DNA of 64,000 nucleotides from an uncultured Gammaproteobacteria bacterium (GTDB lineage Bacteria > Patescibacteriota > Patescibacteriia > Magasanikbacterales > GWA2-37-8): contig CAYOXC010000001.1 of assembly GCA_964407865.1 (NCBI GenBank), positions 203,978 to 267,977 on the forward strand, given 5' to 3'. The number at the start of each line of letters is the position of its first letter. Positions within the stretch are counted from its first letter, which is position 1. Made by a program: the position numbers and the translations under genes. Below the pieces are notes generated by a model. It was given only the letters and a program-made list of their open reading frames with translations. It was not told the origin of the DNA and did not search any database. Below are positions 3,320-37,606 of this stretch, one piece after another.

Positions 3320-3330
3320 GAGTGAGCGAC

Positions 3331-3499
3331 GGGGAGCGACCAAACTGCTTTGGTCGCGTGTGGGATGAGAACGCCGGAGCGATGTCGCGCCGACTTTGCT
3401 GGGAGGCGCGACCGCGAGGCGGTGGCTAGACAAAATTTTCGGAAGAAAATTTTAGTCGAAGCCGAATCCCTAATAGCGAAGCGCCCACCCCCGGAGCAT
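3331..3499 (+). repeat. structured repeat element C, copy 1; candidate ncRNA embedded in a tRNA-Asn-like frame
   Basis: A ~110-nt core (3370-3470) matches 37490-37590 at roughly 90% identity. It has a conserved 7-8-bp GC stem (gtcgcgc[c]...[g]gcgcgac) and an aaaatttt/aaaatttt hairpin with a c/tGGAAg loop. A compensatory change occurs between copies (gac..gtc versus ggc..gcc). A 9-bp hairpin precedes the core. The 3' end repeats the tRNA-Asn terminus cccacccccggagc. Confidence 0.5.
3484..3499 (+). repeat. partial direct copy of the tRNA-Asn 3' end (att-like scar), copy 2
   Basis: cccacccccggagc is identical to tRNA-Asn 3275-3288. It is followed by its own terminator hairpin. Confidence 0.6.
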
Positions 3500-31819: not shown

Positions 31820-31825
31820 CTAAAA

Positions 31826-31849
31826 AACCGGCCCATGGCCGGTTTTTTG
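31826..31849 (+). terminator. rho-independent terminator
   Basis: aaccggcc-catg-gccggtt followed by tttttt. Confidence 0.75.
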
Positions 31850-31850
31850 A

Positions 31851-32159
31851 TTATTCACCTATTGTTTCTTCATTTTTTATTTTTTCTTCAGCTAATTCTA
31901 TCGCTTCTTTAAAGAGCTTGACTGTCGCGTCTCTGTTTAAATCAAGTGTTCCAAAAGCACTTCTTAGTTCAGGACGAGCAATAATAAAAGCCATGATATC
32001 ATTGTCGTTTTCAACAGAAGGAAACTCCTTATGTTTATTAAAATAAACTACGAAATCGTCTGCCAGTACCTTTTGCATGTTATCTATTTTTGATTGTCTT
32101 TTCTCGACTATTTCAGCTGCAATCCGGCCGGCTGATGTTTCTTTATTAAAATCTGACAT
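31851..32159 (-). CDS. hypothetical 102-aa protein between the two tRNA-Pro genes
   Basis: ORF with acceptable coding composition. No recognisable family. Confidence 0.4.
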   Translation of the reverse strand: MSDFNKETSAGRIAAEIVEKRQSKIDNMQKVLADDFVVYFNKHKEFPSVENDNDIMAFIIARPELRSAFGTLDLNRDATVKLFKEAIELAEEKIKNEETIGE

Positions 32160-32258
32160 ATTAATTAAAATTAATTATAAATTGTATTTTAGAGTATGCT
32201 ATCAAAAATATATAAAATTGACAACGGGCAATATTTATAATACAATATGGCAGATTTT

Positions 32259-32332
32259 CGGGGTATGGCCTAATTGGCTATGGCGCACGCTTCGGGAGTG
32301 TGAGGTTCCGGGTTCGAGTCCCGGTACCCCGA
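32259..32332 (+). tRNA. tRNA-Pro (anticodon CGG)
   Basis: Acceptor cggggta/taccccg, anticodon loop ttCGGga, T-arm ccggg-ttcgagt-cccgg. Confidence 0.8.
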
Positions 32333-32462
32333 CTAAACGGATGTCAAGTGGCAGATGCGGCGGGATTTTGTCACTTCTGTGTATAAGTCACATCGGCAAA
32401 TCGCATTTCTGCCATCTTAGCTACCGTTTGAAATTAAAAAACACCGTTTTTCGGTGTTTTTT
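32333..32462. repeat. repeat B, copy 1 (structured about 130 bp, ends in a bidirectional terminator hairpin)
   Basis: gtcaagtggcagatgcggcgggattttgtcacttctg...aaaaaacaccgtttttcggtgtttttt. About 75-80% identical to 34912-35042. Confidence 0.75.
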
Positions 32463-32493
32463 GAATTTTGTTAAATACTATTGCTTTTTCAAT

Positions 32494-33258
32494 TTACAGT
32501 CGTCTCTCTAATAATTTTTTTTGATCCTTGGCAAAAACCTCCGGATCAGGATTGTTCCAATTGAATTCATTGAATATCTGCATCGTTTTTTCTAAAGATA
32601 GATTAGCGTATTTATCAACCAATTCATCTACACAATATTGGCTTTTTAATACGATAGGGTTGTATTTACATGTATATGCATTAAATAACTCGCGAAAACC
32701 GTGATCCCAAAAACATAAAGTTCGATTTTTAACACCATGCAATTCAATAATAATTTCGATATTACTATTTCTGTCCAGAGATATATTTTCTATCATTTTC
32801 TTAGTAAATAAATATATCTCCGTAACACTATATAGGGCATTTAATACCGATAGATATTTGTTATCAATGGTTTTATCTTTCAATTTTGAAAAAACATAAG
32901 AATTAGCCAACTCTTCTTTTTTTTCCTCGGTCATTCGATAATCCTCGAGCATTGAAAAAAAATGAATAAATTGTCCATCTTGATAGTATTGCCAATATTC
33001 TAAATGCCCCATGTCCGGCCAATTTTCAAGCGACATAACGCTCGAATGAGGCGCCGCTTCAATACCACTTTCACGATTGATGTGCGGATAATCCCAACCT
33101 CTTAGTCTTATATTACTTTTAGTAATAACCTCCTTTAACTCCGGAGTCGTTTTAATTCTTATATCTACACGCTCTACTGGCCGAACGATAATTTTCCAAT
33201 ACCCTTTCTTTTTTATTGTTTCTAATAAATTAATAGACATATATTTAACTAATTTCAT
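32494..33258 (-). CDS. hypothetical protein (cassette 1, gene 3), translationally coupled to the AlbA_2-like gene
   Basis: 254 aa. TAATG stop/start overlap with the upstream gene. No recognisable domain. Confidence 0.55.
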   Translation of the reverse strand: MKLVKYMSINLLETIKKKGYWKIIVRPVERVDIRIKTTPELKEVITKSNIRLRGWDYPHINRESGIEAAPHSSVMSLENWPDMGHLEYWQYYQDGQFIHFFSMLEDYRMTEEKKEELANSYVFSKLKDKTIDNKYLSVLNALYSVTEIYLFTKKMIENISLDRNSNIEIIIELHGVKNRTLCFWDHGFRELFNAYTCKYNPIVLKSQYCVDELVDKYANLSLEKTMQIFNEFNWNNPDPEVFAKDQKKLLERRL

Positions 33259-33980
33259 TATAACAGGCCATCTCTCTTTAGCTCTTTCTCATATTCCTCT
33301 TTAAAGCGAATAGAACTAATTTTTTGAACTGCCTTTTTACTTCGTTTTCCCTGTATTAATCTAGAGCATATAAGATGTAAATCGCTGTTTACTATTTCTT
33401 CTCTGTAACCCAGTAGCCTCGTAACTAGCGCTTTCCACTCTTCGGGTTTTTCAACAGATTTAGACTCGACAGGGTTATTTGCGCGTATATAAACTGACCC
33501 ATGTTTCAAATAATAGGTTTCACGTCGATTCTCTATTATTATTTTATAGTCTTTCTTACATATAACCGGTTCTGAACTATTTGCCTCCAAAATTTGTAAA
33601 ACAATAAATTTCTTTTCCTCGCCCTGCAACTCAACGTTGCCACCGTATAACTTTAATTTGACCGTATCATACAGATATCCATTAATGAATCTGCTAATAT
33701 TATCGATATTATTAAATGAATTGAAATCTTCAACAGTTAAGCCAATTCGTTCAAACTCTTCTGCCTGGCCTTCTCCTCTACCAGGTTGCTTAATTCCTAT
33801 ATAAATATTTCCACCATTAACTGTATTAGCAAAAGCTGTAACAGCTTTAATAACTTCTCCCTTTATACATCTTGAACCTTCGTCTCTGGCACTCCAATTA
33901 AACGGCGGCTTAAATTCAATATTCAAATCTTCACTTCCATATTCAATTGTATTAATCATGTTATCAGTTAACGTCTCCAT
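33258..33980 (-). CDS. AlbA_2 / Schlafen-like putative DNA-binding domain protein (cassette 1, gene 2)
   Basis: N-terminal E..LEFK...AFANT.GG.IYIGI pattern characteristic of the AlbA_2 (Schlafen-like) domain. Confidence 0.55.
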   Translation of the reverse strand: METLTDNMINTIEYGSEDLNIEFKPPFNWSARDEGSRCIKGEVIKAVTAFANTVNGGNIYIGIKQPGRGEGQAEEFERIGLTVEDFNSFNNIDNISRFINGYLYDTVKLKLYGGNVELQGEEKKFIVLQILEANSSEPVICKKDYKIIIENRRETYYLKHGSVYIRANNPVESKSVEKPEEWKALVTRLLGYREEIVNSDLHLICSRLIQGKRSKKAVQKISSIRFKEEYEKELKRDGLL

Positions 33981-34023
33981 ATAAAATGCATTCTTACTTA
34001 ATCAAACATCAATAAAAACTCCT

Positions 34024-34689
34024 TTATAAAATATTACTTTTCCCCAAATTGCATTTTGAACATAATGTCTGTAGATTTTCCAACACAGTTTCACCGTTTC
34101 CGCTCCACGGTTCAATATGGTCAATGTGAAGAACCACACTCTGATCCGTTGCAGGACTTCGACCACATTTTTTGCATGCAAAATTGTCTCTTTTTAAAAC
34201 CTGGTAACGCAAACGCAAAGAAATATCCCGAGGAGTCTTCTTGATCTTTGTAATAGTAGTTTTTTTCTTTAATTTAGATATATCTAGTCCACCGACGTAT
34301 TTGATAAATTCTTTCACCGCCGCGGACCATGAGCCGAATCTTTTTTTATAAGCGCTGGCCTTAATCATCGAAATAGATGAATCCATATCGCCTTGTCTGG
34401 GTTGCTCACCCTTTTTCTGCCAAACCATTAATAGATTGTTAAACAAATCTTCATTTGAATGGCGGCTAATCTTGGCTACACCTAATCCGGCCTGCGCCAA
34501 GGCTGCGTTCCAGGTTCTAAATCGACGTTTTATGCTAGTGGAGCTATATTTGCCGTTTTTATTATAAATCTCCTGGGACAAAGAATCGACTTTTAGTTTT
34601 TTAGCAACCACTTGCAAATCCTTAATTAAGTCTGATGATTTTACAGGTTGATTTGGTGGTGGTATATAAATTATACTATCTGACGACAT
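34024..34689 (-). CDS. HNH endonuclease with two N-terminal homing-endonuclease-associated repeats (cassette 1, gene 1)
   Basis: C-terminal HNH motif CKKCGRS...HIDHIEPWSGNGETVLENLQTLCSKCN. Two KRRFRTWNAALAQAGL / KKRFGSWSAAVKEF repeats. Confidence 0.75.
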   Translation of the reverse strand: MSSDSIIYIPPPNQPVKSSDLIKDLQVVAKKLKVDSLSQEIYNKNGKYSSTSIKRRFRTWNAALAQAGLGVAKISRHSNEDLFNNLLMVWQKKGEQPRQGDMDSSISMIKASAYKKRFGSWSAAVKEFIKYVGGLDISKLKKKTTITKIKKTPRDISLRLRYQVLKRDNFACKKCGRSPATDQSVVLHIDHIEPWSGNGETVLENLQTLCSKCNLGKSNIL

Positions 34690-34706
34690 ATATTTGATGT
34701 TTTGAG

Positions 34707-34911
34707 TATTATGCCACCCGGTCCTAAGAGCGTCAATTACAGCGGTGGTAAGATTCCGGTAGCTGACAATCTGAGATAAACCTCCCGAACACTGTCCAAG
34801 AAATTGAATACGTTAAACAACCCATCTTCGGTGAACAAAGTGGCACCACCTTTTTTGCCCAACATTAGCGGATCTGGTTTTTTCGGTTCGAGAAATACGT
34901 AATCAGGTCGA
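34707..34911. repeat. repeat A, copy 1 (about 200 bp). Carries a minus-strand promoter and ends in a degraded tRNA-Pro 3'-like segment
   Basis: About 95% identical to 37204-37409. The 3' end ggttcgag...gactaaa parallels the tRNA-Pro T-loop to 3' end. Confidence 0.8.
34708..34736 (-). promoter_or_regulatory. sigma70-type promoter (TTGACG, 17-bp spacer, CATAAT) driving cassette 1
   Basis: Minus strand reads ttgacg-ctcttaggaccgggtgg-cataat. The ATG of the HNH gene lies 18 nt downstream of the -10 element. Confidence 0.65.
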
Positions 34912-35042
34912 CTAAAAGGGTGTCAAGTGGCAGAAGCGGCGGGATTTTGTCACTTCTGGGGATAAGTCATATTGAAAAATAAGCATTTCCGCCGTCTAAG
35001 ATACTGTTTGAAATAAAAAACACCGTTTTATGGTGTTTTTTG
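34912..35042. repeat. repeat B, copy 2 (terminator-bearing)
   Basis: gtcaagtggcagaagcggcgggattttgtcacttctg...aaaaaacaccgttttatggtgtttttt. Confidence 0.75.
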
Positions 35043-35975
35043 GTTATTTATAGCTTTTCTTACCTCATCAATTGTTAAAGGTGGATATTTCAAGTGAATT
35101 ACTCTATGACAATTTGAACAAATCAACAAAATATCTTCAACTGAAGTAGTTTCTCCTTCTTTCATAGACGCAACCGGCTTAATATGGTGTCCCTCTATAT
35201 AATTTTGAGCCAATGAACCATATCTGTCCCTAAATGAAAAACCACATATTTCACACCGCAATTCTCCACTTTTTCGCAAAGCAATACTCTTTGCTTCTTT
35301 AACTATCTTTGCATTTCGTTCCCTGGTGTAATGCTTGATTAACTTTCGTTTTCCTTCTTCAACTTGACCGATGGATGTTCTGAAATCAGTGTCACTTGTT
35401 AAGAGATTGCTGTTAGCCAGATACTGATCATAAAATGCTACAACCTTTTTCAAATCATCAACCAACTCTTCATTATCCGGCATATTTGCCAAGCGATATT
35501 CCTTGTAATAAATAATTGGTTCTTCATAATCGGAACCCAGTCCTTTATCCGCAATTTTTGCTTTATCATCGGACTTGAAGCCTGCTAATTGATAATTTGC
35601 TCTAATATTTATTGCCTTAGCCTTTAATTTACTAAATGCGAGTTTTCTACCGTCGTTTTTGATAGGTTTGGTGATTCCTTGCCCAAGACATAAATACAAT
35701 CTCTTGAAATCTGTTGAGTATAGATAAACAACGTAAACACCTTCTTGTGCTCCGTCTGTTTCATTCTTGTTAAAAATACCTATCCAAGGAACTGAGGTCC
35801 AATTACCCATACCAGCAGAACCTTTTATCGTAAAATCTTCTTCCCTTATTATTGGAGAAATAATTTTTTTACTTTCTTCTCTAATAAATTTAGCTAGGGG
35901 GTGATTTGTAAATGGCTCGTTTGATGCAATTGGATATTTTGACCCAATTTCGCTCAATAACTCTCTAAGAGTCAT
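35028..35975 (-). CDS. McrB-N-like (DUF3578) domain fused to an HNH endonuclease; putative type IV (modification-dependent) restriction nuclease (cassette 2, gene 3)
   Basis: N-terminal FTIKGSAGMGNWTSVPWIGIF...GVYVVYLYS (DUF3578 / McrB N-terminal-like). C-terminal HNH motif CEICGFSF...GHHIKPV...CSNCHRVIH. Confidence 0.7.
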   Translation of the reverse strand: MTLRELLSEIGSKYPIASNEPFTNHPLAKFIREESKKIISPIIREEDFTIKGSAGMGNWTSVPWIGIFNKNETDGAQEGVYVVYLYSTDFKRLYLCLGQGITKPIKNDGRKLAFSKLKAKAINIRANYQLAGFKSDDKAKIADKGLGSDYEEPIIYYKEYRLANMPDNEELVDDLKKVVAFYDQYLANSNLLTSDTDFRTSIGQVEEGKRKLIKHYTRERNAKIVKEAKSIALRKSGELRCEICGFSFRDRYGSLAQNYIEGHHIKPVASMKEGETTSVEDILLICSNCHRVIHLKYPPLTIDEVRKAINNQKTP

Positions 35976-36017
35976 ATAAAATATATTTAATAATTTCTTT
36001 TTTTACGCTTTTGTTCA

Positions 36018-36788
36018 CTAATGAGTAGTTGCCTTACACCAATAACACTTTATTTGATGATCTCTTTTTTTCAGATTTTTTAGCCACACCTCATCATGTG
36101 TAGAATCAATCATTAAGTGTTCAATCAACATTTCAATTCTCTCAAGTAATTCTTTTCCAAGAACTGGGCCTTTTTTTAATAAATCTTCATAGTCCCAGCG
36201 ACTTGATAATAGGTGGTGAATAAGATGGTTACGATACTGATAAAATATTAACATCTTCTCAACCAAATTATAGGGTTTCCATATTTTATTACTCGTACAT
36301 TTTGATAGAATATCACTCATAGTTCCAAGAGTTAATCCACATGTATCAACTAAAAAATACGCATTAAAAAGAACATCATCTATTTTTTTAATTTTTGCGG
36401 ATTTTTTTTTATGTTCATAGAACTTATTACGCAAATATGCGTTCGCCTTTCTGATATTCAATTCCCCATCCTTTGTCCATTTTTGATAGCGACAAATATG
36501 GTTCAATATTTTGTCCCTTGATTGTTTTGCATCTAATTTGCCAGTCTCATACAAAGCTTGTAAAAGCGCACAGACTTCATGCTCAAGTAAAATATTGACA
36601 TTAAATAATTGATATTCAAGCCAATATGTAGTCATCTGTTTATCCGCTTTTGTTTTATCTAGGCTCTTTTCTAAACTACCGAAACTTTGTTCCTCTTTAA
36701 TTCTATTCGCCCAATAAAATCGATCAAAACCAGTAATAAATTTTTTATCACTATGCCTTCTTCCTTTAATTTTTTTATTTTTTGGCAT
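36018..36788 (-). CDS. hypothetical protein with a HEPN-like Rx4H motif (Abi-like) (cassette 2, gene 2)
   Basis: 256 aa. A YRNHLIHH segment fits the HEPN R-x(4-6)-H motif. No other recognisable similarity. Confidence 0.45.
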   Translation of the reverse strand: MPKNKKIKGRRHSDKKFITGFDRFYWANRIKEEQSFGSLEKSLDKTKADKQMTTYWLEYQLFNVNILLEHEVCALLQALYETGKLDAKQSRDKILNHICRYQKWTKDGELNIRKANAYLRNKFYEHKKKSAKIKKIDDVLFNAYFLVDTCGLTLGTMSDILSKCTSNKIWKPYNLVEKMLIFYQYRNHLIHHLLSSRWDYEDLLKKGPVLGKELLERIEMLIEHLMIDSTHDEVWLKNLKKRDHQIKCYWCKATTH

Positions 36789-36798
36789 AGAAATACTG

Positions 36799-37173
36799 CT
36801 ACTTATTCAAAATAAATCGTTTAAGTTTCTCTAGCACTCCCAATTCGCTATCTTTGATGTCCTTATGGCGTTTTCGAGCTGCTACAGCTAAAGCATCGGC
36901 GATTTTATCGAGATATTTATCGACTATAATATTAGGGATATGAATCGTGTCGTAATCGTCACGAGTAATTGACCAATAACTTCTATCAAAGTCAGAAATA
37001 ATTTGTTCTGGATCAGTATAATGGTGAATACCATCAACTTCTATATCAATTCTGGCCCAAGGAATAGTTAGGTCTATATGTTTATCTTCATCCCACTTTT
37101 CAAGTTCACAGTATATTTTCCTCTGCCTCAGGGCATTGAAAAGACTCTGGGCCTGCGGGGTCGGATTTGGCAT
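36799..37173 (-). CDS. DUF559 / Vsr-like PD-(D/E)xK endonuclease-domain protein (cassette 2, gene 1)
   Basis: ORF trimmed to the start MPNPTPQ, downstream of promoter A2. IDIEVDG...D motif pattern typical of DUF559 restriction-endonuclease-like domains. Confidence 0.5.
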   Translation of the reverse strand: MPNPTPQAQSLFNALRQRKIYCELEKWDEDKHIDLTIPWARIDIEVDGIHHYTDPEQIISDFDRSYWSITRDDYDTIHIPNIIVDKYLDKIADALAVAARKRHKDIKDSELGVLEKLKRFILNK

Positions 37174-37203
37174 ATTGCTTAAATATTTTGGATTTAATGT
37201 CTT

Positions 37204-37409
37204 TATTATGCCACCCAGACAAATGAGCGTCAATTACAGCGGTGGTAAGATTCCGGCAGCTGATAATCTGAGATAAACCTCCCGAACACTATCTAAGAAA
37301 TTGAATACGTTAAATAACCCATCTTCGGTGAACAAAGTGGTACCCTCTTTTTTGCCCAAGATTAGCGGATCTGGTTTTTTCGGTTCGAGAAATACGTAAT
37401 TAGGTCGAC
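37204..37409. repeat. repeat A, copy 2
   Basis: About 95% identical to 34707-34911. Confidence 0.8.
37205..37233 (-). promoter_or_regulatory. sigma70-type promoter (TTGACG, 17-bp spacer, CATAAT) driving cassette 2
   Basis: Minus strand reads ttgacg-ctcatttgtctgggtgg-cataat. Confidence 0.65.
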
Positions 37410-37446
37410 AATTTAAGAATCGCCGAAAGGCGATTTTTAAATTGGA

Positions 37447-37603
37447 GGGGTATGGCCGAATGAAACTATTCATTCGGCCAAGGGACTCGAACGCCGGAGC
37501 CATGTCGCGCGAGTTTGCTGACGAGCGCGACGGCGAGGCGGTGGCTAGGCAAAATTTTTGGAAGAAAATTTTAGCCGAAGCCGAGTCCTCCCGGTACCCC
37601 GAC
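37447..37603 (+). repeat. structured repeat element C, copy 2, embedded in a tRNA-Pro-like frame (5' ggggtatggcc, 3' tcccggtaccccgac)
   Basis: 5' and 3' ends match tRNA-Pro(CGG). The interior is replaced by a 9-bp hairpin plus the ~110-nt C core shared with 3370-3470. Confidence 0.5.
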
Positions 37604-37606
37604 AAA

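Follow-up and report, generated by a model that had tools for sequence, protein, structure and literature searches.

A repeat-flanked cassette of three nuclease-type genes behind tRNA-Pro(CGG) in a Patescibacterium, probably a miniature accreted defense island

Genes and transcription signals of cassette 2

Cassette 2 is a group of three consecutive minus-strand open reading frames (ORFs) in a 64,000-nt stretch of contig CAYOXC010000001.1 (below, the window; all positions are window coordinates). The organism is a Magasanikbacteria-type Patescibacterium, with a best PilT identity of 73% among 185,579 species representatives. The ORFs fill 35028–37173 exactly from stop to start and are separated by 10 nt (genes 1 and 2) and 42 nt (genes 2 and 3), which confirmed the three closely spaced genes reported for this span in a preliminary description of the sequence. 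Gene 1 (36799–37173, minus strand) encodes 124 amino acids (aa) from ATG, a small putative PD-(D/E)xK endonuclease of the DUF559/Vsr-like type with 21 homologs. Gene 2 (36018–36788, minus strand) encodes a 256-aa protein, predicted to be all-alpha, with an invariant Rx4H motif (R186...H191) followed by SSR (R197), and is a candidate for a new HEPN-like family. Gene 3 (35028–35975, minus strand) encodes 315 aa, in which a putative McrB-N (DUF3578/ADAM) reader of modified cytosine and an HNH nuclease were recognized by Pfam and PDB sequence matches.

An alternative 144-aa reading of gene 1 begins at a TTG whose first base is that of the −35-like hexamer. The 124-aa start is considered correct because the homologs begin with MPNPTPQ or MPQPTPQ and the TTG of the longer reading lies inside the −35 box; the shorter start was also picked by gene callers on three independent Logan contigs.

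The promoter-like site (37205–37233, minus strand; TTGACG, 17 nt, TG-CATAAT) matches the consensus, reads from 37233 to 37205, and sits at the inner margin of a repeat (D1', see below), 31 nt ahead of the gene 1 ATG. An identical site (34736 to 34708) precedes a neighboring gene group, cassette 1. Promoter-like matches were not in excess across the region (19 vs. 21.3 in shuffled sequences), so the credibility of the promoter proposed in the preliminary description comes from its position and duplication and not from the scan. At the other end, a bidirectional terminator-like hairpin (35014–35042) with an A-tract and a T-tract includes the stop codon of gene 3 and has a homolog downstream of cassette 1 (32434–32464). 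From promoter-like site to terminator, cassette 2 measures ~2.5 kb. No clear Shine-Dalgarno sequences were seen ahead of the cassette genes. Co-transcription of the trio is plausible from this layout.

The McrB-N–HNH protein encoded by gene 3

The gene 3 protein matched Pfam MrcB_N (DUF3578) over residues 10–185 (E = 1.9e-49) and Pfam HNH over residues 241–294 (E = 5.3e-9). When compared with PDB sequences by phmmer, residues 46–101 matched the N-terminal domain of Escherichia coli McrB (3ssc, E = 1.9e-5) and residues 233–296 matched E. coli McrA (6ghc, E = 2e-3). The translation contains the pattern CxxC...HH...N...CxxCH (CEIC...EGHH...CSNCH).

In E. coli McrB-N, the pocket of the flipped base is lined by Trp49 and Leu68, and Tyr64 and Leu68, conserved among homologs, touch the 5-methyl group and discriminate for it (PMC3424535). 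W49, Y64, and L68, which the pocket comparison covers (Tyr117 falls beyond the aligned stretch), align to W64, Y81, and L85 of gene 3. Gene 3 also matches the residues that contact phosphate (S38, T45, and S46) and has Met in place of the "finger" Tyr41.

Type IV enzymes are defined by a specificity domain combined with a nuclease (PMC11090510), and a 2025 preprint counts ADAM/DUF3578 as one of the readers by which modification-dependent enzymes recruit dimeric HNH domains (bioRxiv 10.1101/2025.04.06.647449). The domain matches and pocket residues bear out the proposal of the preliminary description that the DUF3578–HNH fusion is a modification-dependent nuclease, and its predicted architecture firmly supports a single-chain type IV restriction enzyme that would need no partner. 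As the pocket residues suggest, the McrB-N/ADAM domain would bind 5-methylcytosine, 5-hydroxymethylcytosine, or N4-methylcytosine of incoming DNA after flipping it out, and the McrA-like HNH domain, probably dimeric, would cut nearby. No methyltransferase domain was detected in the six proteins of cassettes 1 and 2 by Pfam, NCBIfam, and PADLOC scans.

Full-length relatives (55% and 46% identity) were found on two mutually unrelated metagenome contigs, in both of which the gene stands alone. One of these contigs carries EF-1alpha-like and ribosomal-protein-S10-like ORFs (read from the translations) and is probably archaeal. The majority of the remaining matches share the HNH half only. The McrB-N–HNH architecture is already in the literature; gene 3 adds a member, not a new kind.

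The DUF559/Vsr-like protein encoded by gene 1

The gene 1 protein itself had no match in Pfam (E ≤ 0.1), NCBIfam, or PADLOC. Its 21 homologs (106–174 aa) are all Patescibacteria or metagenome proteins, some of them named "very-short-patch-repair endonuclease" by two sources. Pfam DUF559 was matched by 15 of the 21 (best 5e-6, below or near the curated cut-off) and MTES_1575 by 14. The family profile aligned weakly with 3hrl, a DUF559 structure (E = 0.2), the columns of the motif being in register. Six residues (D34, E45, G48, H51, D61, and R64) do not vary across the 21 family sequences, and D47 is kept in at least 90% of them. A DUF559/Vsr-like endonuclease, as gene 1 had been called in the preliminary description, is thus a reasonable assignment at the level of the family only. 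The protein would act as a small endonuclease of this type.

A candidate HEPN-like family represented by gene 2

Gene 2 had no significant Pfam match and a single close homolog (45% identity) among 5.8 billion clusters. HMMER, run exhaustively over 1.84 billion representatives with a two-sequence profile, yielded 44 distant relatives at E ≤ 1e-3 (150–250 aa), and the whole family comes from Patescibacteria-type contigs. A word-indexed search with the family alignment gave no more than 6 proteins. An alignment of 38 sequences, ~25% identical to the query, has just three invariant residues, M1, R186, and H191; conservation reaches 90% or more at E58, P143, G155, and R197. The motif consensus is F-N-x-x-R-N-x-x-x-H-N-L-L-S-S-R, with N at position 187 in most sequences. 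Because R186 and H191 are invariant across 38 divergent relatives, the RNHLIH (Rx4H) motif of gene 2 is, judged by this alignment, a family-defining signature beyond chance.

The ColabFold/AF2 model built from the 38 sequences is all-alpha and confident (pLDDT 89.4, pTM 0.85). Judged by its secondary structure, the motif closes a helix (175–191) and is followed by a loop (192–199) and a further helix (200–230). In HEPN proteins, the Rx4-6H motif is located where helix-3 ends and the loop to helix-4 begins; the position after the Arg is polar (most often N, D, or H), an acidic residue upstream is conserved, and inserts between helices 2 and 3 are frequent (PMC3710099). Foldseek searches of the model against PDB and BFVD returned nothing significant (E ≥ 0.4). 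In Pfam and PADLOC scans of the family members, scattered sub-threshold matches were obtained to DUF3644 (twice), RiboL-PSP (twice), Csm6_HEPN, LA2681, Cas13c, and CARF_HEPN, and one sub-threshold HEPN-family match spans the motif region (P0029, residues 151–185). For the HEPN assignment of the preliminary description, the conserved motif and a compatible helix topology speak in favor, and a significant fold or profile match to a HEPN family or structure was not obtained. On the model and the alignment together, gene 2 is quite likely HEPN-like.

The product would most likely be a metal-independent HEPN-type RNase using the invariant Arg and His. An RNA-processing enzyme is just as possible as an abortive-infection toxin, because the relatives stand alone in housekeeping surroundings.

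An earlier AF2 model from two sequences was mediocre (pLDDT 70.9), and the Csm6 chains among its Foldseek matches were discarded as meaningless (E ≥ 1.6). Full-length and motif-region profiles searched against PDB sequences retrieved only spurious hits to Lon, NEMO, and complex I. The window protein and one close homolog share a C-terminal H...C-x-W-C-K tail (residues 244–252) that is absent elsewhere in the family and could be a small metal-binding addition.

Distribution of the three gene families

A total of 173 loci were surveyed, including 75 around relatives of the gene 3 HNH protein and 80 around PilT homologs (~35 from Magasanikbacteria). When HMMs for the families of genes 1 and 2 were run over all ORFs of these loci, each family was found only in the loci of its own members and in three Logan contigs from the same population as the window; neither had a match in the 75 gene 3-relative loci or in the 80 PilT loci. 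No two of the three families occurred together outside this population among the ~170 related loci. The neighborhoods of five other gene 2 family members (P0002, P0059, P0032, P0031, and P0027) are all different and mostly of housekeeping type, with no McrB-N, HNH, or DUF559 gene nearby, and the close gene 2 homolog, one of the five, stands alone amid housekeeping genes, as the other four members also stand alone. In two neighborhoods of gene 1 homologs, the gene is likewise alone, with no nuclease partners.

The preliminary description had proposed a composite restriction/abortive-infection module. Such an integrated system would combine a type IV sensor (gene 3), a HEPN suicide effector (gene 2), and a DUF559 nuclease that assists or regulates them. 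The close spacing on one strand, with a single promoter-like site and a single terminator, is what it would lead one to expect; HEPN domains are often embedded in restriction-modification operons (PMC3710099), and the content of cassette 1 (an HNH nuclease, a Schlafen-like AlbA_2 protein, and an unknown protein) is loosely parallel. Against this, no pair of the families co-occurs beyond this organism and each is found standalone, no PADLOC system model matches cassette 2, and the McrB-N–HNH relatives of gene 3 stand as an architecture of their own in distant lineages. The integrated system is therefore considered quite improbable. A conserved association of the three genes elsewhere was looked for in these loci and none was found. 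Because the relatives occur alone in unrelated neighborhoods and no locus combines the families, the trio is not regarded as a multi-gene system, and functional interdependence of its members is not supported.

Some neighborhoods of the gene 2 family have features of their own. In L011 (5599–6543, plus strand), the distant family member P0059 is followed by an overlapping 314-aa gene without a Pfam family, which could be a two-gene arrangement of that branch; the same region holds ParE-like, SUKH/SMI1, NADAR, and GIY-YIG genes. In L014 (3454–5666) and L018 (4071–5666), family members adjoin a gene for a Trypsin_2-type protease, which may be a coincidence, and L014 additionally has a zinc-ribbon protein beside the family member.

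Tandem units at tRNA-Pro(CGG)

Cassette 2 is the cargo of the second of two head-to-tail units of ~2.5 kb. Unit 1 (32334–34912, minus strand), with cassette 1, begins right after the 3' end of tRNA-Pro(CGG) (32259–32333, plus strand; ...CCCCGAC/TAAA), and unit 2 (34913–37409, minus strand) follows it with the same flanks and different cargo. In minus-strand order, each unit consists of a promoter flank, three genes, and a terminator flank. The promoter-bearing flank of unit 2 is repeat D1' (37204–37409; 206 nt, 93% identical to 34707–34912). Its terminator-bearing flank, formed by repeats D3'/D4' (34913–35042), is 85% identical to 32334–32463; in all, ~165 nt past the tRNA gene (32334–32494, with the terminator hairpin) recur here at this identity.

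The genes of cassette 1 lie within 32494–34689 (minus strand). They encode a 221-aa HNH_repeat and HNH protein with homing-endonuclease-associated repeats (best NCBIfam match the IscB HNH region, 1.5e-11), a 240-aa Schlafen-type AlbA_2 protein (SLFN_AlbA_2), and a 254-aa protein matching no family. None of the PADLOC systems match cassette 1, and beyond the HNH motif no homology was found between the cargo of the two units.

Each unit starts with TAAA(A/C)GG directly after ...CGAC and ends with ...GGTTCGAG-N20-GGTCGAC, and the tRNA-Pro(CGG) gene ends with GGTTCGAG-N11-CCCCGAC. The internal junction at 34912/34913, where the end of D1 meets the start of D3, resembles a reconstituted attachment site. 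Unit 2 is followed by a 34-nt hairpin and then by a structured element, designated E (37444–37604, plus strand).

In related genomes, the order PilT / CCA-enzyme / tRNA-Pro(GGG) / tRNA-Pro(CGG) is kept. In two of them (L019 and L027), an E homolog follows tRNA-Pro(CGG) directly with no cassette, as an empty site would, and the six cassette proteins are absent from all 80 PilT-homolog loci. Because the relatives join the tRNA gene directly to E and lack the cassette proteins, the two units are read as an insertion between tRNA-Pro(CGG) and E. For their arrival, site-specific integration, homologous exchange by way of the shared flanks, and duplication followed by replacement of the cargo are all conceivable.

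The units might also be selfish, recombinase-less mobile cassettes whose first genes are homing or addiction nucleases that spread or stabilize the unit at tRNA-Pro. Shared flanks around differing cargo at one tRNA 3' end are in line with this, as are the resemblance of the unit ends to that 3' end, the absence of the insertion in relatives, and the first gene of unit 1, which combines the Pfam "homing endonuclease associated repeat" with HNH. However, no second site or genome with the flanks was found: blastn matches were limited to the window and contigs of the same population. DUF559 proteins are also not known to be homing enzymes. We regard selfish cassettes of this kind as very improbable.

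Both D1 copies (34737–34912 and 37234–37409, minus strand) contain an open frame of ~57 codons that ends 30 nt before the promoter-like site with ...LFTEDGLFNVFNFLDSVREVYLRLSA(T/A)GILPPL*. The two copies differ at four places within its central 26 codons, and each of these differences is synonymous. As the remnant of a protein gene, the frame was rejected: overall, 4 synonymous and ~6 non-synonymous differences are not decisive, and neither a Pfam match nor a homolog was found. A truncated AlpA/Xis-like helix-turn-helix was considered for it and likewise dropped. A degenerate 10-residue pattern of the D1 peptide had 0 matches in the genome and metagenome collections.

The tRNA-Pro(GGG) and tRNA-Pro(CGG) genes are 438 nt apart here (31821–32258), compared with 17–19 nt in the relatives L019 and L028, and the same CGAC/TAAA junction follows both. 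The stretch between them contains a 102-aa minus-strand ORF without a family. A lineage-wide defense hot spot at tRNA-Pro was rejected, since in L043 and L031 the 4–6 kb between the two tRNA-Pro genes code for housekeeping enzymes. In another Magasanikbacteria locus (L038, 5870–5997, minus strand), tRNA-Pro(CGG) is followed by a 125-nt hairpin-rich insert with repeated CCCGAC motifs, which has no detectable homology to E; a 16-nt duplicate of the tRNA's 3' end, with the same bases after it, again forms its boundary.

The E element

The 160-nt E element copies the ends of tRNA-Pro(CGG) at both its 5' end (GGGGTATGGCC) and its 3' end (CCCGGTACCCCGAC). From the sequence comparison with the empty sites, E is the original sequence downstream of tRNA-Pro(CGG) and so marks the right border of the insertion.

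A covariance model was made from three E homologs, for which RNAalifold gave 52 pairs, 14 of them with compensatory changes. It retrieved two further copies, and the five are located at 37444–37604 and 3327–3489 of the window (both plus strand), L019 9445–9621 (minus), L027 9425–9581 (minus), and L022 4873–5023 (plus). Three follow tRNA-Pro(CGG), one (window 3327–3489) follows tRNA-Asn(GTT), and the L022 copy abuts tRNA-Ser(GGA). Every copy ends with the last 12–19 nt of the tRNA that it follows, and an internal segment, antisense to the T-loop region of the same tRNA, pairs with this terminal copy. The conserved core comprises GAACGCCGGAGCGATG, a hairpin, CGCGAGGCGGTGGCTAG, and a hairpin with a GGAAG loop. 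In the five-sequence alignment, which was fitted to the model and therefore favors the structure, 92.6% of the cells were paired (38–46% with the partners slid) and 23 of the 52 pairs had double (compensatory) changes; 0 of 500 shuffles reached the observed values.

No Rfam family matched E at the gathering or E-value threshold, where only terminator-driven noise was returned, and E was not found in viral contigs. Transfer-messenger RNA, signal recognition particle RNA, and RNase P RNA were rejected on the basis of size and motifs. E looks like an undescribed element that is associated with tRNA 3' ends and is possibly mobile.

In L019 (9380–9660, minus strand), the 35-nt terminator occurs a second time behind E, together with the first ~24 nt of E. 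What follows ...CACCCCGAC is thus the same for the tRNA and for E, and this sign of duplication fits an insertion at the end of the tRNA.

Interpretation of the locus

Taken together, cassette 2 is best read as a miniature accreted defense island of three independently evolving nuclease-type genes, and not as a co-evolved system, carried as a self-contained expression unit of a promoter-like site, three genes, and a bidirectional terminator-like hairpin. A probability of about 60% is given to this reading as a whole. We infer the enzymatic activities, the co-transcription, the defense role, and the mobility of the units from the features described above.

Several points weigh against this reading. 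The activities of all three proteins are predictions from their sequences. Tight packing under one promoter-like site is also expected of a true operon-encoded system. The gene 2 family is rare, with only five other informative neighborhoods, and a lineage-specific association could be real yet invisible. As for the insertion, the end of each unit reads like a degenerate copy of the tRNA-Pro 3' end, with a similarity that is short (8 + 4 nt), and no recombinase or integrase was found in the units or in the other window genes scanned, the scan having covered parts of the window.

A further explanation is that only gene 3 is defensive and that genes 1 and 2 are ordinary Patescibacteria enzymes, a Vsr-like DNA-repair nickase and an RNA-processing RNase, placed in a variable region. 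Their relatives do lie amid genes for release factor, PriA, deformylase, ligase, tRNA synthetases, and topoisomerase, with no toxin-antitoxin partner or conserved neighbor, and both families are confined to Patescibacteria-type contigs. Here, however, the two genes are within a repeat-bounded unit that is missing from related genomes, the sparse and patchy families (21 matches for gene 1, 44 representatives for gene 2) are a better fit to accessory genes, and two neighborhoods hold genes of toxin/immunity type (ParE, SUKH, and SocA_Panacea). A purely housekeeping origin of genes 1 and 2 is thus unlikely, and the accreted island is preferred.

Beyond the island itself, a rather doubtful but conceivable extension is that the tandem units and E are products of one undescribed Magasanikbacteria mobility system that inserts DNA just after tRNA 3' ends. 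On its far side, the insert would then carry a copy of that 3' end, left by the system. The units would be recombinase-less "plug-in" expression cassettes that have a promoter flank and a terminator flank in common and swap defense-type cargo at tRNA-Pro(CGG), and E would be a minimal non-coding member, a structured RNA or DNA with a segment antisense to the T-loop of the tRNA in front of it (Pro, Asn, or Ser).

The evidence speaks against a new three-nuclease defense system as first proposed. The finding itself is modest and its context deserves follow-up: same-flank tandem units and an E element that copies tRNA ends, the most unusual observation at the locus, hint at how Patescibacteria with tiny genomes may acquire and exchange accessory genes without recombinases in the inserted DNA. 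Gene 2 stands for a family limited to Patescibacteria that bears an invariant Rx4H...SSR signature, and Foldseek paired its confident all-alpha model with no solved structure. As a HEPN protein, it would form a standalone, partner-less branch of the superfamily; otherwise, it would be a new fold with a candidate active site. Among possible new tools for modification-dependent restriction, gene 3, a compact 315-aa McrB-N–HNH protein from a candidate phylum, is an inexpensive candidate.

Comparison with known systems

Integron cassettes differ from the units described here, which have their own promoter-like site and terminator and direct-repeat flanks of 206 nt and ~165 nt, and neither attC nor IntI. 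The units are closer to tRNA-gene genomic islands in tandem accretion, with two same-ended units arranged head-to-tail at a tRNA 3' end and absent in relatives; unlike in such islands, no integrase was found in the scanned parts of the window, and the tRNA-end repeat is short and degenerate. Integrase-less cis-mobilizable elements (CIMEs) may be a further likeness.

Gene 1 resembles the DUF559/Vsr-like PD-(D/E)xK endonucleases (PF04480; 3hrl) in its small size and the shared D...ExDG..H...D..R pattern, although the window protein scores below every curated threshold. For true Vsr repair, a cytosine methyltransferase would be expected alongside, and none adjoins gene 1.

With HEPN RNases (Abi2/AbiD-F, Csm6/Csx1, RnlA, and EC042_2821/DUF3644), gene 2 shares a predicted all-alpha fold, the invariant Rx4H with Asn after the Arg, an acidic residue upstream, and, as far as the model's secondary structure indicates, the position of the motif at a helix end entering the loop before a long helix. 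It differs from them in the extra invariant SSR six residues past the His, in a conserved N-terminal HSD motif, in having no MNT, CARF, or antitoxin partner, and in the restriction of the family to Patescibacteria-type contigs.

Unlike McrBC, gene 3 has neither a GTPase motor nor a McrC partner. Compared with E. coli McrB, the Met in place of the finger Tyr41 means that its sequence-context preference may differ. It is most like EcoKMcrA and other type IV reader–HNH enzymes, in which a flipped-base reader is combined with a McrA-like HNH domain with zinc-binding CxxC pairs, the reader in gene 3 being a predicted McrB-N domain instead of the N-domain of McrA.

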